A DNA stretch of 64,000 nucleotides from IMG/VR virus record IMGVR_UViG_3300032287_001394. One strand, given 5' to 3'. This stretch comes from a virus. Positions 9,001 through 24,081 of the stretch are shown piece after piece. Under the pieces are notes generated by a model. The model made no database searches, was not told the origin of the DNA, and saw only the letters and a program-made list of their open reading frames with translations. Made by a program: the position numbers and the translations under genes. Position 1 is the first letter of the stretch; each line of letters opens with the position of its first letter.

Positions 9001-11612
9001 GGAATTCATGGTTTAATGGATCAAGCACATGGTCAGCAGGTGCAACTAACTATAATGAAAACTCATTAGCTCAAGCAGCTAACGTAGACTTTAATGCAGC
9101 CATCGATCCGGTTAATCAAGAATTAAGAGCTCCATTTACCATAACATTTAATGAATTTGAAACTAGTACTTTAACAACTACTGAAAAGAGTGGAGACTTA
9201 GTAACACTAGAATACACTGAGTCGACAGCTATTAGTCAACTAGTTGCTACGACTTATATCAATATCAACCCATTTAATGTTATTAGATTCAATGGTTCTA
9301 TTCTGCTTGAACCAGCATTTGATCAATGGGTAGATACACAATATTTACCAGCGGTTAATAAGATAGTTGATGTTCAAGTCCCAGATGCGGCTGACTCAGT
9401 AATTCAAAATATTAGTGGTAGCGGTAACAGAGTATCTATTACTAGTTCAACCACTACTATTCAAACAAACATTATTAGCCAAAATACTTCTTCATTAGGA
9501 ACTAATGTAGTTGATGTTCAATACATTCCATTCATTAGAGCTAATACTATTAGAGGTACAGCTAAAACATTTAAACCTAATGCAAGACTATATCCATTTG
9601 TTGAGAATACCAGTGTTACTTCATATTGCCGTCCATTAACATTGATAGAAGTACAGAATCATATTGGAACTCTATTTGATCCTACACAAGGCGTATACGA
9701 ATCTTTATCAATTAGATCTACTAGCTCTACTGGCACAGAATGCGGTACAGCTAAGACTGCTATCTATACTCAACCATTAACTACAGATAGCACTAAAAGA
9801 TATCTAACTGTATTTGATGAAGATGTAAGAGCAACTTCTACAACTAATAGCGCTTCTTCTGGATCAACTGCATTGACTGCGACAACAGCTACTGGTACAA
9901 TTAGAGTTGGTATGGTGGTCTCTGGTTCAGCAAATATCCCAGCTAATACAACAGTATCAGCTGTTGTTGGCACTGCGGTTACATTAAGTGCTGCAACTAC
10001 AGGTGCAGTTTCTAATGCATCATTAATATTTAATGGTTTAGTTGTTGGCAAGTATGTGTTTGGTTTAACTGGCAGCGGTTCAGGTGTAATTACTGCTGTT
10101 ACAACATACACTTTAGGTAATGCATTAATACCTGATGAATATGGTAACATTGGCTTTGAATTCCAATTACCAGCTAACACATTTAAGACTGGCGAAAGAA
10201 CATTTAGATTGATTGATAATTCAACTAATGATACTGAAGCACAAGAGTCTATAGGTGAATCTAAATACACCGCAATCGGTATGTTACAAACTAAACAAGA
10301 AACTCTATTAACCACACGAGCTGTACAAAATCAACGAGTAACAGTACAAACTGGTAATAGATTTTGGCATGATCCATTGGCAGAATCATTCTTAGTTGAT
10401 GATCTTGCATATCCGCAAGGTATGTACGTATCATCAGTTGACATCTGGTTTAGAACCAAATCTTCTACAGTACCAGTTACTTTAGAAATTAGACGTACTG
10501 TTAATGGTTATCCAGAATCCACAAGATCAATACCATTTGCAGAAGCTATATTACAGCCCGAACAAGTAAGTATTTCAACTAATGGTACTACAGCTACTAC
10601 ATTTAACTTTGCAAATCCAATCCATTTAAGTCCTGGAGAATATGCTTTAGTCTTAACATCAAACTCACAAGATTATCAAGTATTCATCTGTGAAGTTGGA
10701 CAAACTGAATTAAATGGTACACAAAAAGTTAATAAACAACCATACATTGGTTCATTGTTTAAATCACAAAATGCATCTACATGGGAAGCAAACCAAAATC
10801 AAGACTTGAAGTTCTTAATTCGAAGAGCATCTTTTGTAACATCAGGTACTGCAGAGTTTAATATCATTGATCCTGATGCAGTATCTAGTTATCAAACACT
10901 ATTTGTTAAGACTTCTAATATATTACCGACTGGCACTAATATTAATTGGGCGGCGAAAGCATGGTATGGATCAAGTTCATTTGATACAAACTGGATCCCT
11001 ATTAATATTAATCAAGATCTTAATTATGGCGAACTTAGACAAATTGCTGCTGCTGCAAGTACAGGTACAGGAGTTCCTAGTTTAAGATTACAAGCTACAT
11101 TAACTACAGACAATACTGCTATATCTCCAGCGATTGACGTATCGGCCATGGCCGCAGTTACTGCTTTAAATAGTATTAATAACGACACTACTAATGAAGC
11201 TGGTTCAAAATCTGGAGGAAATGCTACTGCTAAGTATATCAGTAAACCGATTAGTCTAGCTGACGGTTTTGATGCATCTAATATATGCGTTACTGTAGAT
11301 ATTAATATGCCATCAGGAACTAATGTTTATGTGTACTATAAAACATTGGCTACAGAGAAACAAACGCCGATTGATGACGAAAGTTGGGTAGCCATGACTC
11401 AAGAGAAAGCTGTGCCTGTATCGACATCGGCTTTTGACTTTAAAGAATATAGATTCTTCCCGTCCGGTGCGTTTAATGCTTTTGGAGTACCGCAAGATAG
11501 TCCTATTACTACTAGATTTAATGCATTCCAAATTAAAATAGTCATGACATCTTCTAGTCAAACAGCTACACCTAGATTACGTGATCTTAGGATCATAGCT
11601 TTGGATAGTTAA
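6042..11612 (+). CDS. Large virion structural protein, VrlC/DUF4815-like
   Basis: N-terminal [31 protein letters not shown], plus [13 protein letters not shown] and [24 protein letters not shown]; C-terminal [11 protein letters not shown]. Confidence 0.8.
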
Positions 11613-11613
11613 T

Positions 11614-11820
11614 ATGAAGATTAAAGTAGAAAATGAATCTTTAGTTAGGGATACTACTACTAATGCTATATTAGAAGTAGATACAACTAAGTTAAATAAG
11701 TATAGAGCTATCAGACAAAGTATTAAAGATAGAGAACATAAGATAGATTATTTAGCTGAAAGAATAAATAAATTAGAATTAATCATAGAACGGATGAACA
11801 ATGGCGACAATATTACTTAG
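11614..11820 (+). CDS. Small hypothetical coiled-coil protein
   Basis: 68-aa ORF tightly packed between structural genes; LVRDTTTNAIL start and heptad-like C-terminus. Confidence 0.6.
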   Translation: MKIKVENESLVRDTTTNAILEVDTTKLNKYRAIRQSIKDREHKIDYLAERINKLELIIERMNNGDNIT

Positions 11821-12979
11821 ACTAGGCGCAACAGGTGCAACGGGAGTTAAAAATTCTCCTCTAACTAATGCAGAAATAGATACTAACTTTAGTAATCTTA
11901 ATACTGACATAGGTACTAGATTATTATCTAGTGATTATACGGCATCTGATGTTTTAACAAAGATTAAGACTGTAGACGGTACAGGTTCAGGATTAGACGC
12001 AGATCTATTAGATGGTCTAAACGCAGTATCAGGTGCTACTGGTGCTAGCATAGTATCTCGCGATGCTTCTGGTAACTTTTCAGCTGGTACTATTACTGCA
12101 ACGTTTACTGGTAACGTAACAGGTAATACTAATGGCGTACATACTGGTGCAGTGACTGGTAATGTTACTGGTAATACTAATGGCGTACATACTGGTGCAG
12201 TAACAGGTAATGTTACAGGTAATTTAACAGGTGATGTAACTGGTAATACCACTGGAAATCATAATGGTGCAGTAGGTAATGCTACTCCAAGCAGCGGAGC
12301 ATTTACTACACTTAGCGCAGCAGGAATACTATCAGCAGGTGCCGCAGTTGTGTTAGGTGGAACATTAAGTGCAAATGGTTCTAATGGTAATTCTGGACAA
12401 TATTTAAAATCAAGAGGTTTAAGTTTAACTCCAATTTGGGATACCGTATCAATTGACTTAGTAACACAAGTTTCAAGTACACTACTAGCTGGAAATGGCG
12501 GCACGGGTTTAGCTTCAGTAGGTGCTAGCGGAAACGTATTAATATCTGATGGTACTTATTGGATAAGTGACCGTCTTACTGTAGTCGCTAATGATTTAAA
12601 TGGAGATGCAACTGGGTCATTTCCAGCAGATGAACAAACTGGAACAGCTCCTATATTTGCTGCTCGGGCATGGGCACGTTTTGATGGAACTAAAGACACT
12701 ACTAATGCTACATCTACATCAAATACAAATAGATTAATTAAAGCTAGTGGAAATGTTACATCTATATTAAGAAATTCTATTGGTAATTATACATTAACAT
12801 TTAGAACTGCTCTACCTAGTGCAAATTATGCAGCAATAGCATCTGGGTTCTTAAGCTCTGGTAATGCAGCTATAGTTACTACTGATAATTATACAACAAC
12901 TACATTAACATTAAATTGTGTAGATTCTAGTAATGCTGAAGCAGACTTTTTAAATGTAAACGTTGCGATATTTGGATAA
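11801..12979 (+). CDS. Tail fibre-like protein
   Basis: SPLTNAEIDTNF N-terminus, GSGLDADLLDG motif, TGNVTG repeats, C-terminal ARAWARFDG...GNYTLTF domain. Confidence 0.7.
   Translation: MATILLRLGATGATGVKNSPLTNAEIDTNFSNLNTDIGTRLLSSDYTASDVLTKIKTVDGTGSGLDADLLDGLNAVSGATGASIVSRDASGNFSAGTITATFTGNVTGNTNGVHTGAVTGNVTGNTNGVHTGAVTGNVTGNLTGDVTGNTTGNHNGAVGNATPSSGAFTTLSAAGILSAGAAVVLGGTLSANGSNGNSGQYLKSRGLSLTPIWDTVSIDLVTQVSSTLLAGNGGTGLASVGASGNVLISDGTYWISDRLTVVANDLNGDATGSFPADEQTGTAPIFAARAWARFDGTKDTTNATSTSNTNRLIKASGNVTSILRNSIGNYTLTFRTALPSANYAAIASGFLSSGNAAIVTTDNYTTTTLTLNCVDSSNAEADFLNVNVAIFG
12108..12225 (+). repeat. 48-bp tandem repeat encoding TGNVTGNTNGVHTGAV
   Basis: GGTAATACTAATGGCGTACATACTGGTGCAGT occurs twice at 48-nt spacing. 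Confidence 0.8.
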
Positions 12980-12988
12980 GGATATTAA

Positions 12989-14089
12989 ATGGCAAGCTTA
13001 ACACTACGAAGCATTAAAGGATCTCCTCTAACACTGGCAGAGGTAGATGCAAATTTTACTGCATTAAACACTGAACTTGGAGAAAAAGTAGCTACTACAT
13101 CATACACCGCAGCAGATGTGCTTTCAAAACTATTAACTGTTGATGGAGCAAGTTCCGGTTTAGATGCGGACTTTGTTGACGGTTTAAGTCCATCTGCAAC
13201 AAATGCTGGTAATAGTTTAGTATCTAGGAATTCTTCAGGTAACTTTGCAGCAGGTACTATTACTGCAACACTAACTGGAAATGTAACAGGTAACTTAACT
13301 GGCAACGTAACAGGAAACTTAACTGGTAATGTAACAGGCAATACTAGTGGTTCAGCTGGTACTCTTGCTAATACAAGAACTATTAGTATAACTGGTGATG
13401 GTTCATGGACTACATCATTTGATGGATCAGCAAATGTAACCGGTGCTTTTACACTAACAACTAGCGGTGTAGCTGCTGGAACATATACTAAGATTACTGT
13501 CGATGCTAAAGGCAGAGCTACTGTTGGTGCATCATTGAGCGGAACAGATGTTACTACAGCTTTAGGTTATACTCCATGGCATTCAGGTAATGATGGATCT
13601 GGATCTGGATTAGATGCAGACTTATTAGACGGATATAACTCAGCTACTGCTGCTACGGTATCTACTGTAGCTGTGCGAGATGGTTTTGGCGACTTAACGG
13701 CAAATGTATTTAAAGGCACAGCAACTTCTGCAAGATATGCAGACTTAGCAGAAAAATATACTACAGATAAAGAATACTCGGTTGGTACTGTCATTGTCAT
13801 CTCTGATAAAGAAGATTCTGAATGCACAGCATCAGACTATATAGGACAACATGCTATAGGAGTTATATCAGAGAATCCAGCATTCTTAATGAATTCAGAA
13901 TCATCTGGTCAAGCAGTTGCTATCAAAGGAAGAGTGCCTGTTAGAGTAATTGGTCCAATCAGAAAAGGTGAATCTGTTTGTGCAGCTACTAATGGTCAAG
14001 CTATATTAGGTCAAGTTAATGCAATTGCTGTCGCATTAAAGACAGATTTAACACATGAAGAAAAATTAGTGGAGTGCTTTATATTATAA
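12989..14089 (+). CDS. Tail fibre-like protein with C-terminal peptidase-G2/IMC-like chaperone domain
   Basis: N-terminus paralogous to the 11801 ORF; GSGLDADLLDG; C-terminal ADLAEKY...GVIS.NPAFLMN...GRVPVRVIGPIRKG. Confidence 0.7.
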   Translation: MASLTLRSIKGSPLTLAEVDANFTALNTELGEKVATTSYTAADVLSKLLTVDGASSGLDADFVDGLSPSATNAGNSLVSRNSSGNFAAGTITATLTGNVTGNLTGNVTGNLTGNVTGNTSGSAGTLANTRTISITGDGSWTTSFDGSANVTGAFTLTTSGVAAGTYTKITVDAKGRATVGASLSGTDVTTALGYTPWHSGNDGSGSGLDADLLDGYNSATAATVSTVAVRDGFGDLTANVFKGTATSARYADLAEKYTTDKEYSVGTVIVISDKEDSECTASDYIGQHAIGVISENPAFLMNSESSGQAVAIKGRVPVRVIGPIRKGESVCAATNGQAILGQVNAIAVALKTDLTHEEKLVECFIL

Positions 14090-14589
14090 CACTTAATGAA
14101 GTTGTTGAATTTATTCACAACCCTTTGTCATATAAGCAACATTTAGTTTCAATAATAAATGACAGGGGGATACAAATCCCCCTTAATCATTCTAGCGAGC
14201 TGTATGAGGATAAGCCTAAGACTATTAAGGTCGAAGGGATGGAACGATATTCTAAAGTAATTTGGGATAAGTGCTGTGAATTTGCAGATGAATATAATCA
14301 TCATGGTCCTGTGACATGTCATGCATTTATAGCTCAAGCAAACTCCCCATCTTTTGATATGCATACTGATCCAGATGATGTCATCATAGTATGCTGTGAA
14401 GGTAAGAAAACCATGATGGTGAATGGCACATATATAGTATTAGAGGCTGGAGAACATGTTTATATCCCAGTTAATACTCCACACCAAGCATTAAATGAAT
14501 ATGCAGCACTAACGTTAAGCTTTGGTTTAGAAAACTATTTGAAGGATAAATCTCGTAATGAATTGGATGTTTTACCTAAAGACGACTGA
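14074..14589 (+). CDS. JmjC/cupin-fold 2-oxoglutarate/Fe(II) oxygenase (RoxA/YcfD-like catalytic domain)
   Basis: SFDMHTDPDDVIIVCCEGKK...LEAGEHVYIPVNTPHQA gives an HxD...H facial triad and the GxK motif; GTG start overlaps the fibre gene stop. Confidence 0.75.
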   Translation: MLYIITLNEVVEFIHNPLSYKQHLVSIINDRGIQIPLNHSSELYEDKPKTIKVEGMERYSKVIWDKCCEFADEYNHHGPVTCHAFIAQANSPSFDMHTDPDDVIIVCCEGKKTMMVNGTYIVLEAGEHVYIPVNTPHQALNEYAALTLSFGLENYLKDKSRNELDVLPKDD

Positions 14590-15598
14590 GACATGTAACT
14601 TAAATTGTCGCCATTGTTTTACTAATGGTATAAATGGTGCAAAGGTATATTGGGATCATAATAAAGTAATAGATTGGATTCATAGATTTTCCAATTATGC
14701 ATCTAAAAGTGATACATTACATTGTGAATTTCATGGAGGTGAACCATTCTTAGTGCCAGTATCCCAGATGTATGAGGTATGGGATAAGTGCAAGGCTTTG
14801 TTTACTAATTCCAGTTGGGGTGCAACAACCAATTTGGTATTTAAATTATATCAAGAACATATAGATTTAATAAAAGGTCCATTTAACGGTAGAATTGGAA
14901 CTTCATGGGATCCAAAGATAAGGTTTGATAATAAGAAACAAATAGATCTTTGGCGCAATAATGTAAAGACACTGTTGTCTGAAGGCATAACAGTAAGATT
15001 GTTTATAAGTGTCACAAAAGATACTATAGCTATAGACCCAATAGTTTTATTAAGATGGATAAGAAGATTGGGAGTTCAAGAGGTATCATTTGAACGATTG
15101 ACTAATAACGGAAGCGCTAAGAAGTTTCCAGAGATATTTCCATTTAATAAAGATCAAGATGCATGGTTTTTAAAAATGCACCAACAATCTGAAAAATATG
15201 GTGCCAGACATTGGTTTGAGAATGATTTTTTAGAAACAATTTATTCTAAGTTTGAAACTGGTTTTACTAAAGGTGGTACATTTTGTAGGGATTGTGAAGA
15301 AAAGATTTTCACATTAAATGCTGATGGAACCATTTCAGGTTGTCCAAATTCAGCACCAGAATTTCAATTTGGCCACATAGATGACGATATAAATAACCTT
15401 ATAAATAGTCCTATACGCCTAGAAAATATGGCGTGTGAGAGGTCTAGAAACCCATTATGTTATTCTTGTGATGTGTTTCAATATTGCGGTGGTGATTGTC
15501 ACCAGTTATCTTGGCAAGATGAGATATGCGGGGCTCCCAAAAGTTTAATGAGAGAGCTTTCTAAGAAAAAGAAGATATTTTCTATAATACATGTATAG
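14558..15598 (+). CDS. Radical SAM/SPASM enzyme 1
   Basis: CNLNCRHC (CxxxCxxC) and FHGGEPF; C-terminal CRDC...GCP...CYSCDVFQYCGGDC...C SPASM-type Cys array. Confidence 0.9.
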   Translation: MNWMFYLKTTETCNLNCRHCFTNGINGAKVYWDHNKVIDWIHRFSNYASKSDTLHCEFHGGEPFLVPVSQMYEVWDKCKALFTNSSWGATTNLVFKLYQEHIDLIKGPFNGRIGTSWDPKIRFDNKKQIDLWRNNVKTLLSEGITVRLFISVTKDTIAIDPIVLLRWIRRLGVQEVSFERLTNNGSAKKFPEIFPFNKDQDAWFLKMHQQSEKYGARHWFENDFLETIYSKFETGFTKGGTFCRDCEEKIFTLNADGTISGCPNSAPEFQFGHIDDDINNLINSPIRLENMACERSRNPLCYSCDVFQYCGGDCHQLSWQDEICGAPKSLMRELSKKKKIFSIIHV

Positions 15599-15616
15599 AT
15601 AGATAAAGAGGATTTT

Positions 15617-16144
15617 ATGGCAACAGTTGGCACCGTAGTAACAAAACAGAATATCATTGATGATTTTGTTAGTGCTGTAATGGTCCCAGAACAAACTAGG
15701 ACCAGATGGCACGCAACTAATAGACCTACGTATATTGCAGACGTATTAGTTGACGCGAGTGTTGGTATGGCCAATCCTATCGCATCAAACTTTACAGAAG
15801 CAATTACAGCAAGTAACATTGTGTCAGTGCTTAGAGACTATGCTTATGGTACTACGAGAGTAAGATTAGTTAGAGCTGGAATTTACTACGAATTTCCGGC
15901 TGGTCCTGGTACAATAGATGAACAAGTTGCTTACGCTCACTTAAATGATACCTATTTAAGAACAAATCCATTAAGTGTTTCAGGTCCAGTTGTTAATGAT
16001 ATCATTACTGCAGATCCATTAAATACCTTTTATACTTCATTAAGATTAGCATCTAACACAGATACTTACGGAGATATCATAGATCTTCGAATTTGCCACT
16101 CATCATGTCATTCAGCATGTCATAGTTCTAGAGGAAGAAGATAA
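15617..16144 (+). CDS. 175-aa protein with C-terminal (CHSx)3-RGRR motif; candidate substrate/precursor of the radical-SAM cluster
   Basis: Ends ICHSSCHSACHSSRGRR*; strong GAGGA RBS; embedded among radical SAM genes. The substrate role is inference. Confidence 0.7.
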   Translation: MATVGTVVTKQNIIDDFVSAVMVPEQTRTRWHATNRPTYIADVLVDASVGMANPIASNFTEAITASNIVSVLRDYAYGTTRVRLVRAGIYYEFPAGPGTIDEQVAYAHLNDTYLRTNPLSVSGPVVNDIITADPLNTFYTSLRLASNTDTYGDIIDLRICHSSCHSACHSSRGRR

Positions 16145-17190
16145 TGTTTCATTTATTTAACTCAGTTTATTTACATTTTGATTTTAATTTTGAACCGGCT
16201 GGAAAAGACTTTATATTAGCATCAGATATTTATGGCAACAAGCCAATGATAACGGTGCAAAATAATGAAGTTTATCAATCTCAACCATCATTTGAAGATT
16301 TAATTAAGTATCCATTTAACGGTGACGAAGAAAATTTCTGGACTAATTTAATTGCTCGTAATAAGAAAGTTGTGGTATATGTTAATCCATCTCAACTTTA
16401 TAAGTTGCAAACTAAGTATTTAAAGAGCATCTTTAAACATGCATCTATTCAAGATTTACATAGAATTCATGTCTCATTTGTTGAAAGTACTAGATTAAGA
16501 TCTTACTTTGAAGCTTCCACTGGGCCAGATATACGTAAACATAAAACACTTACTACTATTAATCCATTATCATTAGAACAATTTGAAGAATTATATAATT
16601 CAACAGAAGTTTCTAAAGCCTTACAGAGCTTAGATAAAACCACATTATCATTCGAATATCTTTTAGCTGATTATGTTTATAACAAAAATAGCCAATATAA
16701 ATCAGCCCTATTAGCTAAAAGTGAGGTAATGATTTGGGATAATTGGTTCAATGAACTTGAATATTTACGTTATGAAACTATATTTGGTTCATTAGATCTT
16801 AATAAATTAGACCCTAATATTGAATTAGGTATTGGTACAATTGAAGAAGCACTTGCACAAAGTGAATTACTAAAGTGGATTGTTGATCCAGACTTTGCAT
16901 ATAACAGAGAATATATTAAAACTAATTATGATTATAAAACATTTAGTTCACTGTGGGATAAAATTTATAGTTTATATGGCGTGTCTGAAGATATGTCAGA
17001 GACAAATGAATTAATTAATACCGACATGTATGAAGAATTATTAAATCGTGATATTAATCGCGGATTTGGTTGCACTTATACAGGTGAAATGTTTAAAGAA
17101 AAAGCCAATCACGTGTTTGCATCATATTGCTATAATATTGCACGCACAAATGATACATCATCGCTAGCTCCATATAGATTGACTTCTTAA
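16144..17190 (+). CDS. Hypothetical protein of the radical-SAM cluster
   Basis: 348-aa ORF coupled (TAATG) to the CHSx gene; no motif recognised. Confidence 0.7.
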   Translation: MFHLFNSVYLHFDFNFEPAGKDFILASDIYGNKPMITVQNNEVYQSQPSFEDLIKYPFNGDEENFWTNLIARNKKVVVYVNPSQLYKLQTKYLKSIFKHASIQDLHRIHVSFVESTRLRSYFEASTGPDIRKHKTLTTINPLSLEQFEELYNSTEVSKALQSLDKTTLSFEYLLADYVYNKNSQYKSALLAKSEVMIWDNWFNELEYLRYETIFGSLDLNKLDPNIELGIGTIEEALAQSELLKWIVDPDFAYNREYIKTNYDYKTFSSLWDKIYSLYGVSEDMSETNELINTDMYEELLNRDINRGFGCTYTGEMFKEKANHVFASYCYNIARTNDTSSLAPYRLTS

Positions 17191-17218
17191 TATTATTAGG
17201 TGAAGTGTTTATTATACT

Positions 17219-18343
17219 ATGAATATATTTAGTAATGAATTTAATGTTATTTATTTAAGAGTCGTACAAGGGTGCAATTTAAACTGCACTCATTGTTTTA
17301 CTCTTGGTAATAAAGATCCTTATATGGTTACTGACCTTAACTATATTGAGGATTTTTTGTCATCTATAAAAGATAACGTCGACCCTCAAAAAGCTACATT
17401 TTATATACATGGTGGAGAAACTTTTCTTGCGCCATATTCACATTTAGCTGACGTTAATAAAATAATCAGATCTAAGTTTGGTACTAAGAGGATAGACATA
17501 ATTCCTCAAACAAATCTATTGTATACTATAGATGATGAGTTTATTAATTTTGTAAAGACCGAGTACCGATCAACCATTGGTGTTTCTTGGGATGCTGACA
17601 TTAGGTTTGGATCTATTGCAATTAATAAGAAGACTGATCAAGAAAACCTATTCTTTAGCAATTTAAAACAACTTCTTGCCAATGATATAAAAGTTCATAT
17701 AGCAATTACTGCTCAAAAGCATTTGTTAAACTACGATCCTCTTGAGATTGTAAAAATGTTTGATGGAGTTGATTCAATTGACTTTGAATTATTAACTACA
17801 TTTGATGAGAAAACTAGAAACTTAAAACCTAATAATAAAAAATGGGCTATATGGTTAGAGAAGTTAGTAGATTATTATCAGTATAATAAAACTACTTGGT
17901 GCTTACCACAAATAGATCTTTTTACAAAGGCGTTAATTACAGGTAATTTATTCGACTGTAAGTGTAATTGTTGTGATAAACGCACTTTTACTTTAAATCC
18001 AAATGGTACTGTTGGGTTATGTCCAGATAAAACTTATGTTGAACCATTTTCAACTACTACTGAAATGAAACAAGATTGGGCTACATTCCAAAATAAATCA
18101 CTCGATGTAATAATGAAAAAGTTAGTTGAAATGGATCAACATACTATGTGTTTTGAATGTGAACATTATGACATATGTGGCGGTAATTGTGATGCAAGTT
18201 TGTTTGATGATTCCGATGAATGTCCATTATCTAAAAGTGTTATAAGTAAGATTAGAAATAATAAAGAAGTTTTTATAAAACTGTATGAAGATAAAGCTAA
18301 AAACAATTTAACTGAATTAAGGAATGATTATGACATACATTGA
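17219..18343 (+). CDS. Radical SAM/SPASM enzyme 2
   Basis: CNLNCTHC and IHGGETF; CKCNCC...GLCP...CFECEHYDICGGNC...ECP. Clear paralogue of enzyme 1 (shared IGxSWD..IRF and FTLNxxGT motifs). Confidence 0.9.
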   Translation: MNIFSNEFNVIYLRVVQGCNLNCTHCFTLGNKDPYMVTDLNYIEDFLSSIKDNVDPQKATFYIHGGETFLAPYSHLADVNKIIRSKFGTKRIDIIPQTNLLYTIDDEFINFVKTEYRSTIGVSWDADIRFGSIAINKKTDQENLFFSNLKQLLANDIKVHIAITAQKHLLNYDPLEIVKMFDGVDSIDFELLTTFDEKTRNLKPNNKKWAIWLEKLVDYYQYNKTTWCLPQIDLFTKALITGNLFDCKCNCCDKRTFTLNPNGTVGLCPDKTYVEPFSTTTEMKQDWATFQNKSLDVIMKKLVEMDQHTMCFECEHYDICGGNCDASLFDDSDECPLSKSVISKIRNNKEVFIKLYEDKAKNNLTELRNDYDIH

Positions 18344-19046
18344 TACAATTGCCCCTATTCCAATTGACTGTATTAAAGAATATTTTAAAGATAAAAATAT
18401 AATGTTTTTAATTGACTATGAAAATAGTAAACTTGAAAACAAAGTCTTTTTGACGTATTTGTCAAACCTTGACGTTCCTTGTGACATTAAATTAGATTCT
18501 TTAAGCACAGAAAAGAAGTTGGCTTTATTAGAAGCATATTTAAATATTAAAAATATTACCAATGTTCCTGCTTTGAACATCATGATGGCGCAAATCATTT
18601 TACATATGATTGGATCAGATCCATCAATGTTGTTTAAAACACTATCTCTTACACCTGAAGAGTGCGATACATTCATAGAAAAAAATAAATTAGAGATTGA
18701 AAGATGGTTGATCTTCTTAGATTCAACTATGGTTTTCTTAATCTATTCTTATAAAGATTTAAATGAGAAAATTAAAGTAGAAGAAACTTTCCCTATCATT
18801 GACGATGAAAACTTTGTTGGTTTAAACGTTATTAATCTATTAAAGATTCCTGCATTCTTAGAACTTTACTTTGCCGCAGATAAACCAGTAGCACTATACT
18901 ACTTTAAACGTCACTTTGAAGTATACATGTTTAAGGGCAAATCATTCTTTGAGTATTATAATAACGAGTGTAATGCATTCATTCCATTACTTAAACAATT
19001 AATTTCAAAAGAATTACCATTAACTCCTCCAAATTTCGAGGTTTAA
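18324..19046 (+). CDS. Hypothetical protein of the radical-SAM cluster
   Basis: 240-aa ORF overlapping the rSAM2 end; probable start at 18330 after AAGGA; no motif recognised. Confidence 0.7.
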   Translation: MIMTYIDTIAPIPIDCIKEYFKDKNIMFLIDYENSKLENKVFLTYLSNLDVPCDIKLDSLSTEKKLALLEAYLNIKNITNVPALNIMMAQIILHMIGSDPSMLFKTLSLTPEECDTFIEKNKLEIERWLIFLDSTMVFLIYSYKDLNEKIKVEETFPIIDDENFVGLNVINLLKIPAFLELYFAADKPVALYYFKRHFEVYMFKGKSFFEYYNNECNAFIPLLKQLISKELPLTPPNFEV

Positions 19047-19047
19047 T

Positions 19048-20151
19048 ATGGATGCATATTTAACTTCAGGTAATCTGAACGAATCTAATTCTTATTATTT
19101 CAACCTTAATTTTGAATTTTTAAATGGATGTCAATTTAGTTGTAAAGGTTGTCATGTAAACAAGAATGGTTCTGCGCCTATTAATGATGAAAGTTATCTT
19201 CAGCTTATGAAGATTATGAATTCATTTACACCTGAAAATTCATATAAACCATTCATTGCCTTTATTGCTCCAACAGATTTTCTATCTGCAACTAATACGT
19301 ATTCAGTTTTAACAGATAAACGTATTATTGAAATCCTTAATAAGTTTAAAAGAATATCTCTCCAAACTACGTATCTTAATATGGATAAGGCGAGTCTTAT
19401 TGCTGATGTATTAAAAGAACACTATAGTAATATGGAATTAGAAATCAATGTTATCATAGAACCAGAAAAGATTGAGAATGAAAAGTATTTAAGCATTCTT
19501 AAAAAACATCAAGATAAAATGATTGATCTTTTAGATTGGCCTATACCAGTAAGATCATTTGGTATTATGAATGTATTTGATTATGATTCTACTAAACTTG
19601 CAGAGATATTAAAAGATTACGACCATTTACATAAGAAAGTTCAACATCTATTTCAAACTACTATTGATTTTAATTTTTCTTTAGGTAGAAAAGACGAAAA
19701 CTTAACACACGAAGAATTTAAAAGTGCGACCAATAGAATTAAAACTATGTTCAATAGTTCTGTTGTTTCTGGTGAGAAAAGCGGCTACCTTAGATTTTCA
19801 TTTGGTAAACTAAATGATTCTCTAATTGAACGACAATATAACTGGAAGAACGGCGAGTTTTATTATTCACCTCTCCTTTATGAACGATATGTTTCTTTTA
19901 TTGATGGATTAAAAATGAACATAGAAGACTATAGTGCAAAAGAATTTGAAAAGTTTGAAGAAGACGTTCAATTACAGCAATACCTGAATGTATCGAATAA
20001 AACTGAATGTGAAGATTGCATTATGTTAGGATCTTGTGTTGATCGTGGTATCTTACATCTAATGGATGTTCATGGAGTTAAAGATTGTTTAGTTGCTAAA
20101 GATGCAATGCTAACAGTCAATAATCTAAAAATTTCAGGCCATCCTGCATGA
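19048..20151 (+). CDS. Radical SAM-like protein 3 (atypical, lacks GGE motif)
   Basis: CQFSCKGC (CxxxCxxC); FIAPTDF at the usual GGE position; C-terminal CEDCIMLGSC...C. Confidence 0.75.
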   Translation: MDAYLTSGNLNESNSYYFNLNFEFLNGCQFSCKGCHVNKNGSAPINDESYLQLMKIMNSFTPENSYKPFIAFIAPTDFLSATNTYSVLTDKRIIEILNKFKRISLQTTYLNMDKASLIADVLKEHYSNMELEINVIIEPEKIENEKYLSILKKHQDKMIDLLDWPIPVRSFGIMNVFDYDSTKLAEILKDYDHLHKKVQHLFQTTIDFNFSLGRKDENLTHEEFKSATNRIKTMFNSSVVSGEKSGYLRFSFGKLNDSLIERQYNWKNGEFYYSPLLYERYVSFIDGLKMNIEDYSAKEFEKFEEDVQLQQYLNVSNKTECEDCIMLGSCVDRGILHLMDVHGVKDCLVAKDAMLTVNNLKISGHPA

Positions 20152-21209
20152 GTGAATTCTTAAGACATGTTTTAAAAGATAAAATGCCAGACTCAACTGA
20201 GATTGAGCTGCATCTATTTGAGTTCTGTAACTTAAGCTGTGCTTTCTGTGGACAAGATCACGACTCTACAGAAGGTATGAACACTATTGAGGAAAAAGCT
20301 TTACAAGTTACAGACTTTATGAAAAAGTCTAATATGAATAGCCATATCGTTAATATTATGGGTGGGGAAATATTCAATGATTTAGTACCAGACGATACGT
20401 TTGAAAGCTATATAAAATTTTATAACATTATCAATTCTTGGTGTGACGACAATAATCATACAGTAAGATTTAATTGGGTTACTAACTTAATATTCTTAAA
20501 AATACAACGTATAAAAGACTTCATTAATACATTAAGAGCTATTAAACCTAATTCATATATTTCAACTTCATATGACTTTGCTGGTCGCGGATTGAATTTA
20601 AATCGAACGTTACAATTTGAACACAACATTAAAAGCTTTAAAGATATTATTACAGTAGTTGGATTTGTATTAACTAAACAAGCAATTAAAAGGATACTAA
20701 CTAAGACTGACAAATTCTTTAAAGATTATCTTTATGAGAACTATACCCTATACTTTGATTATTATGTTCCAGAAGCAAATGCAGAAAAAATGATGCCAAC
20801 TGAGCACGAAATGTTGGATTGCATGTTATTCATTGCTAAGAATTACCCTGAGATTTATCCAATAAAAGATCTTATTGTTAATGAACGAAATAAGATGACT
20901 TGTTATTCCATGAATAAGACGACAATCCTTCCAAGCGGAAGAGAAGTCACATGTCGTTACATGGATTATGATCCTATCACTTTCATAAATAAGATTGACT
21001 ATAAATCAAACAGTAATATTATCCAATCGCATTTAGATAGAAACCAATGTTTATCATGTAAATGGTTTGATCGTTGTCAGTTTAGATGTTTTGTTCAAGC
21101 CGATTGGGCAAAACTAGAAAGAACACACGACTGTCTATTTAGAGAGTTCTTCAATAGAATGGAAAGTGAGAATCTATTACAATATGGATCTAATAATAAA
21201 ACCGACTGA
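20148..21209 (+). CDS. Radical SAM/SPASM enzyme 4
   Basis: CNLSCAFC and IMGGEIF; C...C...CLSCKWFDRCQFRC...C. Confidence 0.88.
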   Translation: MSEFLRHVLKDKMPDSTEIELHLFEFCNLSCAFCGQDHDSTEGMNTIEEKALQVTDFMKKSNMNSHIVNIMGGEIFNDLVPDDTFESYIKFYNIINSWCDDNNHTVRFNWVTNLIFLKIQRIKDFINTLRAIKPNSYISTSYDFAGRGLNLNRTLQFEHNIKSFKDIITVVGFVLTKQAIKRILTKTDKFFKDYLYENYTLYFDYYVPEANAEKMMPTEHEMLDCMLFIAKNYPEIYPIKDLIVNERNKMTCYSMNKTTILPSGREVTCRYMDYDPITFINKIDYKSNSNIIQSHLDRNQCLSCKWFDRCQFRCFVQADWAKLERTHDCLFREFFNRMESENLLQYGSNNKTD

Positions 21210-22257
21210 GAAGTGCAACTTTAAATGCACATTCTGTTCTAGTACATATATCACTGAAGATAAAACTGCCGAGTTAGATCATCAGTATATCTTTGACTTC
21301 TTAAAGAGGTTCCCGGAAACTAAGACAATTATAGTCAATGGTGGCGATCCATTGATGATGGAACCTGAATACTATTGGAAGATTATAGAACATTTAGATG
21401 AAATAGGTTCTGATGCTACCATATCATTTACTACTAACTTATGGCCGTTCTATAAGAATCCTAATAGATGGAAAGAGCTCTTTAATCATTCAAGATTAGG
21501 TATAACTACATCATTCCAATATGGAGGAGGTAGGCTTAAAGGCGACTTGACAGAGTTTAGTGAAGAAGACTTTTGGAAGTGTTCAGATGCTATGTTAGAG
21601 CATTGTGGATATAGACCAGACTTTATTGCAGTTATTACTGAAGAGAATGAGCATGACGCTATAAAAAACGTCGAATTAGCTAAGAAGATGGGTGTAGAGT
21701 GTAAACTTAATTATGCATTCTCATCAGGACCGCCAGTCAAGTTTAAGAATATAATCATGGGTCAAGAAGGTAAGCCATACTTGTTAGCGGACATATATGA
21801 GATATATGTTGAGATATGGAAAAGAGGTTTGACTGAATGGGAATATAATACTAAACAAATGGTTAAACGTCTAAAGGGTGAAGGTACTACATGTCCACAG
21901 AATAGGGATTGTGATAGCGGCATTAGGACTTTACAACCATCTGGAGACTACTACTCTTGTGGTGCATTTGGAGATGATAGACAGTATCCAATAGACTTTA
22001 ACAAAGAAATGACTGGTGAAAAGATACATCCTATTAAGTTTCAATCTGAACTGCAGAGTTTAAAACAATCATGCTATATTTGTCCTATGTTTGAAATATG
22101 TAATGGATGTAAGAAGACTATAACAGACCTTAAGAATTATAACTTAGTTGAAGAGCATTGTTATAAGATGAAGCAACTTGCTCCTGATATAATCAAAGCC
22201 AATGGATTAAATTTAGAACCCACTCCGTATGAGAGGGAATATGATTATATCAATTAA
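21184..22257 (+). CDS. Radical SAM/SPASM enzyme 5
   Basis: IIKPTEKCNFKCTFC and NGGDPL; CPQNRDC...YSCG...CYICPMFEICNGC. ATG at 21184 preferred over the GTG at 21166. Confidence 0.9.
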   Translation: MDLIIKPTEKCNFKCTFCSSTYITEDKTAELDHQYIFDFLKRFPETKTIIVNGGDPLMMEPEYYWKIIEHLDEIGSDATISFTTNLWPFYKNPNRWKELFNHSRLGITTSFQYGGGRLKGDLTEFSEEDFWKCSDAMLEHCGYRPDFIAVITEENEHDAIKNVELAKKMGVECKLNYAFSSGPPVKFKNIIMGQEGKPYLLADIYEIYVEIWKRGLTEWEYNTKQMVKRLKGEGTTCPQNRDCDSGIRTLQPSGDYYSCGAFGDDRQYPIDFNKEMTGEKIHPIKFQSELQSLKQSCYICPMFEICNGCKKTITDLKNYNLVEEHCYKMKQLAPDIIKANGLNLEPTPYEREYDYIN

Positions 22258-23179
22258 TCCATGGTATTATTGTAACTTTAAGTGTGACTTCTGTTACTTA
22301 ACTAAAGAACAATTAGACGACAAGACTCTATTAGATTTAAGAGTATTAGAAAAAAGACTTGATGAAGTCATGTCTATTGATGAGATTGGTGGGATAGATT
22401 TATATGGCGGTGAAATAGGATTACTACCTGAAGATTATGTAGAAGAATTATGTGCTATAGTTAAATCGCGAGGCATTGATGATATAAACATAATCACTAA
22501 TCTAAGTATGGTCAATAGAGTTATAACCAACCCAGATTTATATGTATCTGTTAGCTATGACTTTGAATGTAGAGAACAACATGATCGTGTATGGGACAAT
22601 ATGTTTGCTCTTAATAATCCATTTTCTATATTAATCTTAGCCAGTAAAGATCTAATAAATAAAGATGTAGGTGAGATGATATCTCAGTTAAACCTATTAA
22701 GTAACTTAAGTTCTGTAGAGATTAAACCGTATAGCATAAATCAAGCAAATTGCCACTCGGTCAGCCATAAAGACTTTGAGTTATTTGTACAAAAATGGTT
22801 GGATAATGATATACAAATGAGGTTTGAGTTTGTCAATGAAAACAATATTCAAGCGACTTTGGATGGGTCTCGTAATGCATTCAGTAATGACCATGTGTAT
22901 ATTACTCCAACTGGACAATTTGCAGTCCTTGAGTTTGACCTAAATGATAAAGAATACTTTAAGACTTTGGACTCAATACAAGATTATAAAGATTGGGCAT
23001 TAAATGAACCTAATAAGAACGTAAGTGATATATGTAAGTCATGTGACTATTATGGTAGATGTTTAACAGAGCATTATCGATATGTTAAAGATTTGGATAA
23101 TGGATGTAATGGATATAAAGGACTAATTGATTGGTATAAACATGGAAGATTGGAAGATAAGACAAGAGCTCTATCATAG
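22241..23179 (+). CDS. Radical SAM enzyme 6 with shortened SPASM-like tail
   Basis: CNFKCDFC and LYGGEIG; CKSCDYYGRC...GC. ATG at 22241 follows a GAGGG RBS (ORF track starts at 22229). Confidence 0.88.
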   Translation: MIISINPWYYCNFKCDFCYLTKEQLDDKTLLDLRVLEKRLDEVMSIDEIGGIDLYGGEIGLLPEDYVEELCAIVKSRGIDDINIITNLSMVNRVITNPDLYVSVSYDFECREQHDRVWDNMFALNNPFSILILASKDLINKDVGEMISQLNLLSNLSSVEIKPYSINQANCHSVSHKDFELFVQKWLDNDIQMRFEFVNENNIQATLDGSRNAFSNDHVYITPTGQFAVLEFDLNDKEYFKTLDSIQDYKDWALNEPNKNVSDICKSCDYYGRCLTEHYRYVKDLDNGCNGYKGLIDWYKHGRLEDKTRALS

Positions 23180-23546
23180 ACTAAACACTGTCCATGATGA
23201 TGACTTAAATGATAAGAATATAGAGATCACTGACAATATAGTGGCGGATGCTGTTAGGTATTTTACCGAAAAAGACATAGGATGGATCTATCCATCTAAA
23301 AGTTATATGGTTGCTATATGTTATGCTAAATGGCTTTCTGAAGAGTTTGGCGGCAATCCTATAGACTATTTAAATGATATAGATTTACTATTTGGCAATG
23401 ACCCATATTTCATAATATATGATGAAGATGCTGTTACATATAACCAGATATTAGACCGTATAGGCGAATGGAAGTTTGATCAAACTAAAGGAATGGTTCC
23501 TGATGTTAAGAAGTATTTTATAGAGGAATTTATGATAGATGTTTAA
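23142..23546 (+). CDS. Hypothetical acidic protein ending the radical-SAM cluster
   Basis: ORF overlapping the rSAM6 end; ATG at 23142 (track start TTG 23127); no motif recognised. Confidence 0.65.
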   Translation: MEDWKIRQELYHRLNTVHDDDLNDKNIEITDNIVADAVRYFTEKDIGWIYPSKSYMVAICYAKWLSEEFGGNPIDYLNDIDLLFGNDPYFIIYDEDAVTYNQILDRIGEWKFDQTKGMVPDVKKYFIEEFMIDV

Positions 23547-23587: not shown

Positions 23588-23595
23588 TATAAATA
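23588..23595 (+). promoter_or_regulatory. T4-type late promoter TATAAATA
   Basis: Exact motif 6 nt before the ATG at 23602. Confidence 0.65.
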
Positions 23596-23601
23596 ATAGA
23601 T

Positions 23602-23742
23602 ATGGCAGCTATAACAAATTTCTACATAGACACTGGATCCACTTTTGGGGCAGTAATTACAGTCAAAGGATCTGACGGTCTACCGTTAAACTTGACTGGA
23701 TTCACAGTAACATCATATATGGACTTTAATTATTATAAATAG
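23602..23742 (+). pseudogene. Truncated 46-aa paralogue of the downstream 111-aa gene
   Basis: Translates MAAITNFYIDTGSTFGAVITVKGSDGLPLNLTGFTVTSYMDFNYYK*, versus MAAITNLYVDAGSTFSAIISCKGSDGVPLNLTGYTVAAQIRK... at 23746. Not in the ORF track. Confidence 0.8.
23734..23741 (+). promoter_or_regulatory. T4-type late promoter TATAAATA
   Basis: Exact motif immediately before the 23746 ATG. Confidence 0.65.
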
Positions 23743-23745
23743 TAA

Positions 23746-24081
23746 ATGGCTGCGATAACAAATTTATATGTAGACGCTGGATCAACTTTTAGCGCTATTA
23801 TTTCGTGTAAAGGATCAGATGGGGTTCCATTAAACCTTACAGGATATACAGTTGCAGCACAGATTAGAAAATCTTATGCGTCAACAACAGCTTATAGTTT
23901 GAATGCTACCATATATTCAACTACAGCAGGTAAAATAAGAATAGCACTTTCACACACCGAGTCATCAGCTATAAAAGCTGGAAGATATATGTATGATATT
24001 GAGATAACTTCTGGATCAGGAGAGAGAAAAAGGGTGTCTGAAGGTATAGTAATAGTAACACCAGAGATTACAAAGATTTAA
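23746..24081 (+). CDS. Conserved small virion protein of T4-like phages
   Basis: NLYVDAGSTF...LNLTGYTVAAQIRKSY...GRYMYDIEI...RVSEGIVIVTPEIT pattern, common before fibre genes. Confidence 0.7.
   Translation: MAAITNLYVDAGSTFSAIISCKGSDGVPLNLTGYTVAAQIRKSYASTTAYSLNATIYSTTAGKIRIALSHTESSAIKAGRYMYDIEITSGSGERKRVSEGIVIVTPEITKI

Follow-up and report, generated by a model that had tools for sequence, protein, structure and literature searches.

What does a virus do with six radical SAM (rSAM) enzymes encoded side by side among its tail-fibre genes? The window analyzed here, 64,000 nucleotides of an uncultured freshwater T4-like myovirus (IMG/VR record IMGVR_UViG_3300032287_001394), contains such a cassette, for which an original prediction from the letters alone had proposed a RiPP-like modification system that probably tailors a virion protein. 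We compared its genes with family models, predicted structures, homologous loci and published virion proteomics.

Organization of the cassette

The predicted gene block was confirmed at positions 14074-23546, where 11 co-oriented and coupled genes lie on the plus strand with overlaps or gaps of no more than 28 nt between neighbors. They encode a cupin, six rSAM enzymes, a 175-aa protein (CHS protein) and three unknowns. As had been proposed, the block is flanked by tail-fibre or baseplate genes, and searches with Pfam, NCBIfam and PHROGs revealed in it neither a peptidase or transporter nor a gene of any cofactor pathway. The features are as follows.

11801..14089, plus strand: two tail-fibre-like genes, 392 aa and 366 aa (PHROG tail-fibre families)
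14074..14589, plus strand: cupin, 171 aa, probable Fe(II) oxygenase (PF08007, Cupin_2, triad)
14558..15598, plus strand: rSAM1, 346 aa, full SPASM domain (TIGR04085, 32.6 bits)
15388..15407, plus strand: tandem T4-type late-promoter motifs, TATAAATA twice (motif scan)
15617..16144, plus strand: CHS protein, 175 aa, proposed substrate and virion component (AF2, family, Atu_ph07 proteome)
16094..16141, plus strand: tail of 16 residues, CHSS-CHSA-CHSS-RGRR, in which three C-H-small-S/N units are followed by R-G-R-R, ending exactly at the C-terminus
16144..17190, plus strand: u348, 348 aa, accessory (phrog_36207)
17219..18343, plus strand: rSAM2, 374 aa, rSAM/SPASM (best NCBIfam match YhhB, 56.6 bits)
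18324..19046, plus strand: u240, 240 aa, core member (phrog_20767)
19048..20151, plus strand: rSAM3, 367 aa, accessory, a divergent rSAM whose C-terminal part has a single 4-Cys cluster site (conserved Cys, hhalign)
20148..21209, plus strand: rSAM4, 353 aa, seven conserved C-terminal Cys, core member
21166..22257, plus strand: rSAM5, 363 aa, rSAM/SPASM, core member (PF04055, 41.1 bits)
22229..23179, plus strand: rSAM6, 316 aa, one 4-Cys C-terminal site, core member (PF04055, 31 bits)
23127..23546, plus strand: u139, 139 aa, core member (phrog_20737)
23588..24081, plus strand: right border, a 46-aa truncated, diverged gene copy and the next gene

Both fibre-like genes lie directly upstream of the cassette, the 366-aa one overlapping the start of the cupin gene by 16 nt, and the same fibre C-terminal domain was found ahead of the cupin in other loci.

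Enzymes and accessory proteins

All six rSAM enzymes contain the predicted CxxxCxxC motif, which is conserved to at least 90% among each enzyme's orthologs, and C-terminal Cys arrays, which are also kept across orthologs (7-11 conserved Cys in rSAM1, 2, 4 and 5, and four in rSAM3 and 6). Five of the six matched PF04055 and/or NCBIfam SPASM-type models, the exception being rSAM3, and Pfam matches above the gathering score were obtained for two. For the SPASM model TIGR04085 (cut-off 27), rSAM1 scored above the cut-off (32.6 bits), and rSAM2 (26.2) and rSAM5 (23.3) just below it. The best NCBIfam models for rSAM1, which has invariant C13/C17/C20 and eight C-terminal Cys, were PapB, DynA and anSME, and its relatives in PDB were CteB and anSME, the latter aligned over the full length. 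The second enzyme, rSAM2, is a lineage-specific paralog or duplicate of rSAM1 (28% identity), with the cyclophane-forming YhhB as best match (56.6 bits versus a cut-off of 445). No Pfam match could be found for rSAM3; it keeps C28/C32/C35 and C321/C324/C330/C347 in 35 orthologs, and its profile relatives by hhalign were rSAM6 (90%) and rSAM2 (74%). The best-conserved enzyme was rSAM5, 60-63% identical across unrelated phage lineages. On the basis of these similarities and of their full SPASM Cys sets, the cassette enzymes look like peptide- or protein-modifying SPASM enzymes (PapB, DynA, YhhB, anSME and CteB), rather than members of small-molecule or nucleotide families. They form five anciently diverged orthogroups that are less than 25% identical to one another and 42-62% identical between phages; that these have been kept together fits a multi-step pathway. 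The rSAM sequences begin at the cluster motif, rSAM1 has no N-terminal RiPP recognition element (RRE, PqqD-like), and neither a fused nor a stand-alone one was matched by Pfam or NCBIfam in the cassette.

The 171-aa protein had been predicted to be a JmjC oxygenase. It is solidly a cupin with a conserved H-x-D...H triad (H97-x-D99...H137, kept in 60 orthologs; RSF1 ORF069 and DT01 gp067 are orthologs), and probably an Fe(II) oxygenase. The JmjC label was overstated and is weak, because PF08007 (35.4 bits versus a cut-off of 22) covers only 33 residues, or 33 of the 127 profile positions, and Cupin_2 (29.7 bits) also passes its cut-off on the same protein.

With regard to the unknowns, u348 had no Pfam or NCBIfam match and is unrelated to the rSAM enzymes. 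The u240 gene directly follows the CHS gene in most loci, and its product was modeled by AF2 with a pLDDT of 93.7; a search for a convincing structural relative returned none, nor was a fold or family recognisable, and u240 is a candidate partner or chaperone. The true start of u139, also of no recognisable fold or family, is probably at 23142.

The CHS protein and its C-terminal tail

The original prediction had singled out the 175-aa protein as a candidate substrate. It ends in CHSSCHSACHSSRGRR and is the only open reading frame with such a motif in the 64-kb window. The AF2 model (pLDDT 88.5 overall, 52-59 in the tail) predicts a folded alpha/beta body (residues 1-158) followed by a flexible C-terminal tail. 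No known fold could be assigned to the body, including structural-protein, ferredoxin or scaffold folds. The family comprises 823 clusters, in which the body is fast-evolving, nearly Cys-free and 25-35% identical, and the 16-residue tail is nearly invariant at the exact C-terminus, its C, H and R positions being identical in all 214 full tails. The tail is encoded by 81 distinct DNA sequences, in which Ser and Arg are each specified from both of their codon boxes, so selection acts on the peptide.

The three H-x-S/N triplets and the Cx3Cx3C array of the tail are both known types of rSAM/SPASM substrates (PMC11499958; PMC13128918). At the sequence level these triplets match the Aromatic-X-X three-residue motif of triceptide substrates. 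In over 70 loci the conserved 16-mer is encoded just after rSAM1, the arrangement of a RiPP precursor beside its maturase. The CHS protein appears to be undescribed in the literature, in which the rSAM genes are mentioned in passing only.

Distribution and co-inheritance

The original prediction had suggested searching phage and metagenome data for co-occurrence of the enzymes with such tails. The core order cupin-rSAM1-CHS-u240-rSAM4-rSAM5-rSAM6-u139 was found in approximately 70 of 80 IMG/VR viral loci, in RSF1, DT01 and Atu_ph07, and in all seven MAG contigs. Among cultured viruses, 12 myoviruses from unrelated lineages had the core set, and no cultured cell genome had it. Co-inheritance was strict: rSAM1 and rSAM5 co-occurred in the identical 15 of 50,697 GenBank phage records, every homologous cluster examined has the tail protein beside the enzymes, and rSAM1 lies immediately upstream of it in nearly all loci. 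The predicted 'six rSAMs for one substrate' was overstated: the conserved core includes four, and the number per cassette ranges from about four to eight; rSAM3 and u348 are accessory members outside the core.

The cassette lies among fibre or baseplate genes in T4-like, Chiangmaivirus, DT01-like and Rak2-like phages, and rSAM cassettes of pelagimyophages are located in a 'host recognition cluster' (PMC7029224). The best explanation of this distribution is a self-contained, horizontally mobile and virus-only module.

Virion association and proposed role

The Atu_ph07 homolog of the CHS protein, gp170 (31.89 kDa), has the tail CHSSCHASCHNSRSRR. It was detected by ESI-MS/MS of virions with eight unique peptides and 35% coverage, whereas the cassette enzymes gp165, 168, 169, 171 and 172 are missing from the same list (PMC6102473 Table S5). 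These published data support the idea of a RiPP-like phage system acting on a virion protein, and so do two outcomes that could have refuted the original prediction but did not, the SPASM-type similarity of the enzymes and the tail protein in every cluster examined. It should be noted that the virion association of the family comes from this one proteome, and that the preparation was PEG-purified rather than gradient-purified, with replication enzymes among the 131 proteins listed (PMC6102473). Despite its mass, gp170 was most abundant in the top gel band (band 1), alongside proteins of 76-139 kDa (PMC6102473). The loading buffer, as described, contained no reductant, and the high-mass species could thus be disulfide-linked rather than enzymatically cross-linked. 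Another protein, of 36 kDa, likewise peaked in band 1. In the RSF1 record, ORF071 is annotated only as 'hypothetical protein', whereas ORF067 is a 'virion structural protein'.

We favor, with slightly better than even confidence, an explanation in which enzymes that are not packaged cross-link or oxidize the CHS tail and the protein then joins the baseplate/fibre region. The newly made protein would consist of a folded body and a floppy tail of 16 residues, (C-H-small-S/N)x3-R-G-R-R, on which the metal-binding cupin oxygenase and four to eight rSAM enzymes with auxiliary Fe-S clusters would act in the infected cell. The likeliest chemistry would be C-C bonds from His to the C-beta of Ser/Asn (cyclophane-type) and/or thioether cross-links of Cys, plus hydroxylation. 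The matured protein would be built into the virion at the baseplate/tail-fibre (host-recognition) region and the enzymes would remain in the cell; the modified tail might form a tip that is rigid, cationic, resistant to proteases and possibly metal-binding, and that serves in host recognition or envelope crossing. If so, phages would tailor a protein of their particle by a RiPP-like pathway. We infer from co-occurrence and motif logic only that the tail is the substrate; the kind of chemistry, the protein's place in the phage tail and the role of the product are inferences too. Several points count against this explanation: the CHS body lacks a recognisable structural-protein fold, an RRE/PqqD-like domain was not found in the cassette, and a single pathway would have to combine oxygen-sensitive rSAM enzymes with a cupin that requires oxygen.

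Another explanation, which we regard as unlikely, is that the CHS protein is a long-leader precursor whose modified tail, or a small molecule derived from it, is cleaved away and set free to serve as cofactor, metallophore or antibacterial peptide, similar to PQQ or mycofactocin. Such RiPP-like logic would agree with the SPASM maturases and with a protein whose C-terminal core is conserved while its N-terminal part varies; cofactor precursors such as PqqA and MftA typically have an invariant core. However, the approximately 90 loci examined, including the window cassette, contain no peptidase or exporter of the kind found in rSAM RiPP pathways, the N-terminal part is predicted to be a confidently folded domain of 160-280 aa rather than a leader, and the homolog recovered from Atu_ph07 particles was of full-length size.

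It also seems improbable that the CHS protein is a helper rather than a substrate, its Cys/His tail binding a metal or Fe-S cluster and the protein serving the rSAM enzymes as cluster donor or electron carrier, with the neighboring fibre proteins or something else as true substrates. Three Cys and three His, regularly spaced, are classic metal ligands, the Fe-S demand of six enzymes that each carry up to three clusters would be large, and fibre genes do adjoin the cassette. Yet these fibre genes vary between lineages and the tail does not, metal binding leaves the invariant Ser/Asn and R-G-R-R positions without explanation, the CHS protein shows no ferredoxin or scaffold fold, and it is the CHS homolog, not the enzymes, that was found in particles.

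Comparison with known systems

The nearest analogues of the cassette are the HXS defence effector, triceptides and ranthipeptides; judged by sequence comparison, it belongs to none of them. In the bacterial HXS antiphage system, the effector HxsA is matured by the rSAM enzymes HxsB/HxsC with HxsD (Li et al. 2026, PMC13128918). Similar to what is proposed for the viral cassette, a whole protein rather than a short peptide bears tandem His-x-Ser units rich in basic residues, the maturation set combines more than one rSAM enzyme with a small partner protein, and the function is linked to the phage-envelope interface. In contrast, the phage motif has a Cys before each His, an exact C-terminal position and an RGRR end, and the cassette includes four to eight rSAM enzymes and a cupin. 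Searches with the HxsA-D models (TIGR03979/03978/03977/03976) gave no match for the CHS protein even at E<=5 and no HxsD; rSAM1 scored 24.9 bits against HxsB (cut-off 370) and rSAM5 30.8 bits against HxsC (cut-off 267.9).

Since the rSAM-matured HxS repeats of bacterial HXS serve to bind DNA and block phage DNA entry (PMC13128918), a conflict module might be imagined by analogy, in which the matured cationic tail would act in the periplasm like HxsA, countering an HXS-like host defence or excluding superinfecting phages. The three HxS units followed by RGRR and the accessory, mobile nature of the cassette would fit this idea. We nevertheless consider it distinctly improbable, as NCBIfam shows no homology of the cassette proteins to HxsA-D, neither a signal peptide nor a peptidoglycan-binding domain was matched, and matches to defence libraries were limited to generic rSAM cores.

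The triceptide maturases YhhB, XyeB, GrrM, HaaB and HtkB are rSAM/SPASM enzymes that join an aromatic residue, including His through C2, to the C-beta two positions on (PMC11499958). The three H-x-S/N triplets and the YhhB match of rSAM2 point in this direction, but the best score of the cassette against these maturases was 56.6 bits versus a family cut-off of 445 (YhhB/XyeB/GrrM), the putative phage substrate is a folded protein of the virion, 175 aa long, whose triplets are interleaved with Cys, and no leader/RRE logic, protease or exporter was recognised in the cassette. Ranthipeptides/SCIFF (PapB and CteB) share a Cys-rich C-terminal core with Cx3C spacing, and PapB was the best NCBIfam model for rSAM1, with 46.1 bits versus a cut-off of 340. 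However, SCIFF precursors are about 45 aa long and occur in Clostridia, whereas the putative phage precursor is folded and has 175 aa; the acceptor Asp/Glu/Thr is missing from its tail, and the cassette enzymes have no N-terminal RRE.

Two further systems also modify proteins. Like rSAM1, with which it aligns over the full length, anSME combines rSAM and SPASM domains in about 350-370 aa and has no RRE, and it modifies Cys/Ser of a full-size protein; the cassette enzymes scored 34-48 bits versus 349 for its model (TIGR03942), and the target motif C/S-x-P-x-R is missing from the tail. The rSAM/SPASM enzyme QhpD installs several thioether cross-links in the gamma subunit of quinohemoprotein amine dehydrogenase. 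As proposed for the CHS protein, this modified small subunit stays in a larger assembly, but the system is a cellular redox enzyme with a single rSAM and other motifs (model TIGR03906, 21 bits versus a cut-off of 453).

It is highly improbable that the rSAM enzymes perform nucleotide, DNA or small-molecule chemistry beside a mere neighboring structural gene, as the DNA repair or metabolism guessed in the DT01 paper and weak N-terminal matches to viperin, MoaA, QueE and NrdG models would suggest: these matches span only the generic rSAM core (approximately residues 7-100) far below cut-offs (viperin-type NF038283/PADLOC pVip, 23-38 bits versus 180, N-terminal core only), full-length similarity goes to SPASM peptide/protein modifiers, and the tail protein adjoins rSAM1 in more than 70 loci of unrelated lineages.

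Promoter motifs and the right border

T4-type late-promoter motifs are spread through the structural region and occur just before the CHS gene. Among the 19 motifs, 18 were on the plus strand, and none of 100 shuffles reached 19. The tandem pair is located within the 3' end of the rSAM1 gene, some 220 nt ahead of the CHS start. Contigs from RNA libraries of four studies start at 15424-15430, which is a weak hint only. Finally, at the right border, the 46-aa copy (23602-23742) resembles the N-terminal ~36 residues encoded by the gene that follows (23746-24081), and TATAAATA precedes each of the two copies. Such a partial duplication would fit a scar of recombination bordering an inserted module.

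Phage background and genomic surroundings of the cassette

The window (64 kb, ~35% G+C) consists of one long series of phage structural genes, all on the + strand, encoding baseplate wedge proteins, a 1,856-aa DUF4815 protein, fibre proteins, terminase, tail sheath, portal and a gp23-type major head protein; no tRNAs were found in it. The terminase-sheath-portal-head order is T4-like, the head protein is ~62% identical to those of its closest cultured relatives (cyanophage P-TIM40 and OM43 phage Melnitz), and near-identical DNA was found again in freshwater and lake metagenomes of several studies. Thus, the source is an uncultured T4-like myovirus from fresh water and not a jumbo phage. The features discussed below are as follows.

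Features of the window
6042-11612: giant 1,856-aa protein (DUF4815, phrog_358), before the fibre genes
12989-14089: fibre gene overlapping the cupin start; its C-terminal domain has a weak Peptidase_G2/intramolecular-chaperone-like match (19.4 bits, under the cut-off)
14074-23546, + strand: cassette of 11 genes
15388 and 15400: tandem pair of the T4 late-promoter motif TATAAATA, inside rSAM1 and before the tail-protein gene
15617-16144: 175-aa tail protein, whose C-terminal 16 residues (the tail) are encoded at 16094-16141
23602-23742: 46-aa ORF at the right border
23746-24081: following 111-aa gene (L-shaped tail fibre assembly-like, phrog_1084/3304)

The cassette is flanked on both sides by fibre genes. 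Of ten divergent loci, nine have a gene for a fibre, tail or virion structural protein as upstream neighbour, and in phages RSF1 and Atu_ph07 the cassette adjoins baseplate wedge and virion structural genes. A survey reported that pelagimyophages differ by the insertion or deletion of radical SAM (rSAM) gene cassettes in their 'host recognition cluster', on the downstream side of VrlC (PMC7029224). The cassette is set among genes for the tail's host-recognition part. By its position, the 1,856-aa DUF4815 protein is probably the VrlC of the pelagimyophage papers; ORFs of 1,745-2,060 aa hold the same upstream position in many IMG/VR loci. The C-terminal module of the 12989-14089 fibre gene (phrog_22593/19602) also ends the gene preceding the cupin in other loci. 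At the right border, the 46-aa ORF is a truncated, diverged duplicate of the first ~36 residues of the 111-aa gene, each copy being preceded by its own TATAAATA (at 23588 and 23734), and this duplicate looks like a recombination scar at the cassette edge.

Gene content of the cassette

The 11 co-oriented, coupled genes of the original prediction were all present, with overlaps or gaps of ≤28 nt, in the order cupin, rSAM1, tail protein, u348, rSAM2, u240, rSAM3, rSAM4, rSAM5, rSAM6 and u139 (u348, u240 and u139 being named by length). Five of the six proposed rSAM enzymes matched PF04055 and/or NCBIfam rSAM/SPASM models; the sixth, rSAM3, had no Pfam match but kept the Cys motifs. Its CxxxCxxC and four C-terminal Cys were retained in 35 orthologs, and its profile is related to those of rSAM6 and rSAM2. 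The number of conserved C-terminal Cys was 7-11 in rSAM1, 2, 4 and 5 (a full SPASM set) and four in rSAM3 and rSAM6. The first gene, previously read as a JmjC oxygenase, encodes a small cupin whose H97-x-D99...H137 triad is conserved; the JmjC label, which depends on a 33-residue match, is weak.

As had been noted, the cassette contains no detectable peptidase or exporter, nor was an RRE found. The three length-named proteins matched only PHROG families with no assigned function, and NCBIfam models gave no family assignment for them or for the tail protein. Fold searches with u240 returned nothing from the PDB with Foldseek, a best Z of 5.0 on 60 residues in VIA-align wide, and a best TM of 0.45, to a viral hypothetical protein, in the Atlas; ESM Atlas feature searches with u240 and u139 yielded nothing informative. 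PADLOC found generic viperin-core matches only.

A nearly invariant C-terminal tail

The 175-aa tail protein, picked out earlier for its CHSx repeats, indeed ends in CHSSCHSACHSSRGRR, and no other ORF of the window carries a motif of this type. A word-based search recovered 92 clusters of this protein, and an exhaustive profile search 823 cluster representatives at 50% identity (551 with E ≤ 1e-10). Their bodies share 25-35% identity and are nearly devoid of Cys. The tail follows the consensus C-H-[S/A/T]-S-C-H-x-[S/N]-C-H-[G/S]-S-R-G-R-R, every time at the exact C-terminus, and its C, H and R positions were all invariant in 214 of 214 full tails; deviations from the consensus comprised small changes (gain or loss of a single repeat, an added Gly, the variant RSRR) and truncated sequences. 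Selection on the tail is strong. Since the tail is encoded by 81 distinct DNA sequences that draw on both codon boxes of Ser and both of Arg, this selection acts on the peptide and not on a DNA repeat. A link between Tyr in the tail and the presence of rSAM3 (Fisher p=0.009) was rejected, all Tyr cases belonging to one lineage.

AlphaFold2 predicted with confidence a compact alpha/beta body (pLDDT 88.5, pTM 0.81), followed by a flexible tail (pLDDT 52-59). Against solved structures the body had no convincing match (Foldseek PDB; VIA-align wide, best Z 3.8), and searches of Foldseek PDB, BFVD and VIA-align wide returned family members only or nothing significant. Complex prediction for rSAM1 and the tail protein, run without controls, gave a score of 0.01, which counts neither for nor against binding.

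Distribution and mobility of the cassette

Megablast of the whole cassette block against GenBank phages gave no match, nor did tblastn with the 175-aa protein, the latter probably due to the divergent body and the masking of the tail as low complexity. Homologous cassettes in phages were recovered with rSAM3, rSAM5 and rSAM1 as queries. Both rSAM1 and rSAM5 occurred in the same 15 of 50,697 GenBank phage records, representing 12 phages, which include the Chiangmaivirus RSF1, RSL2, RsoM3USA, FLC4-x, FLC6, FLC8 and SURPRISE13, as well as DT01 and the 470-490-kb phages Atu_ph07 and Phosso. Except for rSAM2, a duplicate of rSAM1, the rSAMs of the window have one-to-one orthologs in Ralstonia phage RSF1 and Pseudomonas phage DT01 (42-62% identity; rSAM3 only ~20% to its DT01 counterparts), and the paralogs are <25% identical to each other. 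The 60-63% identity of rSAM5 across unrelated carrier lineages and the T4-like window phage indicates horizontal transfer.

The proposed co-occurrence of rSAMs with the tail protein was borne out in metagenomes: the protein was found in 142 IMG/VR contigs, and in ~70 of the 80 loci fetched it lay beside rSAMs in the core order cupin, rSAM1, tail protein, u240, rSAM4, rSAM5, rSAM6 and u139. Accessory members are u348, rSAM2 and rSAM3, and a PF13759-type 2OG oxygenase, absent from the window, is a frequent addition in IMG/VR loci. Among 185,579 species genomes the tail protein was present in only seven, all of them MAG contigs with the cassette and none a cultured isolate. Habitats include freshwater, marine, soil-phage and gut-derived sources. 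The cassette is a conserved, mobile, virus-only unit.

A second architecture consists of two tandem tail proteins (124-127 aa in its typical form, 124-144 aa over all loci concerned), five rSAM3-like paralogs, rSAM4-6 and u139, without cupin, rSAM1 and u240. It was seen in eight loci (L064, L066, L070, L072, L073, L075, L078 and L087), with the paralogs, rSAM4-6 and u139 where the locus was long enough; rSAM5, rSAM6 and u139 sit on the opposite strand, and the tails in loci L064-L078 read CH-x-S-CH-Y-S-CH-x-S-RGRR. Locus L088, a 208-kb gut-derived contig binned with an uncultured Gemella MAG and probably from a jumbo phage, has a different enzyme set (rSAM5, three rSAM1-like genes and u240) and a shortened tail ending in CHSSCHSNCHHR, with no RGRR. 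In RSF1 (locus L001, 13639-14928) and its relatives, the orthologs of rSAM4 and rSAM5 are separated by an inserted HNH endonuclease gene together with two genes for dihydrofolate reductase.

Relationship to known radical SAM systems

Radical SAM/SPASM enzymes mature peptides (RiPPs) and a few enzymes. Since 2026, one effector of bacterial defence has also been known to be matured in this way (PMC13128918). The best models for the cassette rSAMs were PapB (Cys thioethers), DynA, YhhB (cyclophanes) and anSME, and their solved-structure relatives were CteB and anSME, the latter aligned over the full length; like anSME, they have no N-terminal recognition domain. They resemble peptide- and protein-modifying rSAM/SPASM enzymes. 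However, every family-specific score was far under the curated cut-off, for example 46 versus 340 for the ranthipeptide maturase PapB, 57 versus 445 for YhhB, 48 versus 349 for anSME, and 25 versus 370 and 31 versus 268 for HxsB and HxsC of the antiphage system HXS.

The tail itself combines two known substrate types. Triceptide synthases join His-C2 to C-beta at position +2 (PMC11499958), and in HXS defence an SHRSS unit of the effector HxsA gains +8 Da via HxsB/HxsC (PMC13128918); the tail has three His-x-Ser/Asn triplets of this kind together with the Cx3Cx3C array type of SCIFF/ranthipeptides. The cassette appears to work like an rSAM protein-maturation system, yet it is no member of any named one.

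In the literature on carrier phages we found no mention of the tail protein or its motif, and rSAM genes receive no more than brief remarks: the eight located in the structural cluster of Aeromonas phage 332-Vera are termed 'highly unusual' in the paper on that phage, and a role in DNA repair is the guess offered in the DT01 paper. Our literature search found no report of radical SAM/SPASM chemistry on a phage particle protein.

The tail protein in virions of Atu_ph07

In Atu_ph07, the tail-protein homolog is gp170 (296 aa, tail CHSSCHASCHNSRSRR), flanked by a cupin (gp172), an rSAM (gp171), a u240-like protein (gp169) and the rSAMs gp168 and gp165. Attai et al. (2018) detected gp170 (31.89 kDa) in virions with eight unique peptides and 35% coverage (PMC6102473, Table S5), and gp165, gp168, gp169, gp171 and gp172 are all missing from the same list. 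Computed masses equal those in Table S5 exactly, so the gene numbering is right. It should be noted that the preparation was PEG-purified only and that some of the 131 listed proteins are clearly non-structural (PMC6102473).

The abundance of gp170 peaks in gel band 1, as does that of 76-139-kDa proteins, whereas ~30-kDa proteins peak in band 7 (PMC6102473); gp170 therefore migrates as a high-mass species that withstands SDS and heat. Because the gel loading buffer is described without reductant (PMC6102473), disulfides via the three tail Cys could account for this shift. A second small protein, gp321 (36 kDa), likewise peaks in the top band (PMC6102473, Table S5). Usable virion proteomics for DT01, FLC6, SURPRISE13 and RP31 were not found in the literature.

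Proposed maturation of the tail

On the basis of the enzymes' resemblance to peptide and protein modifiers and of the two known substrate types in the tail, we propose that several rSAMs would each put one type of cross-link on the tail and that the cupin, plus 2OG oxygenases in other phages, would hydroxylate it. The proteins u240 and u139 would act as non-catalytic partners, and the matured tail protein would be built into the baseplate/fibre region. We tentatively suggest, as a possible but rather doubtful reading, that the cassette represents the first case in which radical SAM enzymes mature a structural protein of the virion: large myoviruses would carry a portable RiPP-like pathway of several enzymes, by which the invariant (CHxS)3-RGRR tail would become a cross-linked, cationic, possibly metal-binding baseplate/fibre tip acting at the envelope/DNA-entry step, mirroring on the phage side, and perhaps countering, the HxS effector that bacteria mature with rSAMs.

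Four to eight rSAM enzymes would be devoted to 16 residues by a common module (823 family clusters, 142 IMG/VR contigs) that is virus-restricted and passes from one unrelated myovirus lineage to another, entering their host-recognition regions. Should the proposed modification of the tail prove right, this would be new rSAM chemistry on a Cys/His/Ser scaffold and a new principle of virion assembly, with a possible phage-side counterpart of HXS defence. Direct testing is possible since cultured carriers exist (Atu_ph07, RSF1/RSL2, FLC6/FLC8, SURPRISE13, DT01 and Phosso).

Transcription signals

The TATAAATA motif is enriched and strand-biased in the window (18 of 19 on the + strand). A sigma-70 promoter scan gave fewer sites than in shuffles and is uninformative for a T4-like phage; terminator-like matches were of low quality. 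Contigs from independent metatranscriptome libraries of four lake studies covered most cassette genes, although such RNA-library contigs are no proof of transcription (DNA carry-over being possible), and uncovered stretches were left without interpretation. In all four libraries a contig starts at 15424-15430, 17-23 nt past the tandem TATAAATA pair, a weak hint that the tail-protein gene may have a late transcript of its own, with its 5' end at this point. All four RNA-library contigs also carry a 1-nt deletion in this gene followed 5 nt on by a 1-nt insertion (15737-15742), a compensated pair that alters two codons in a related strain.
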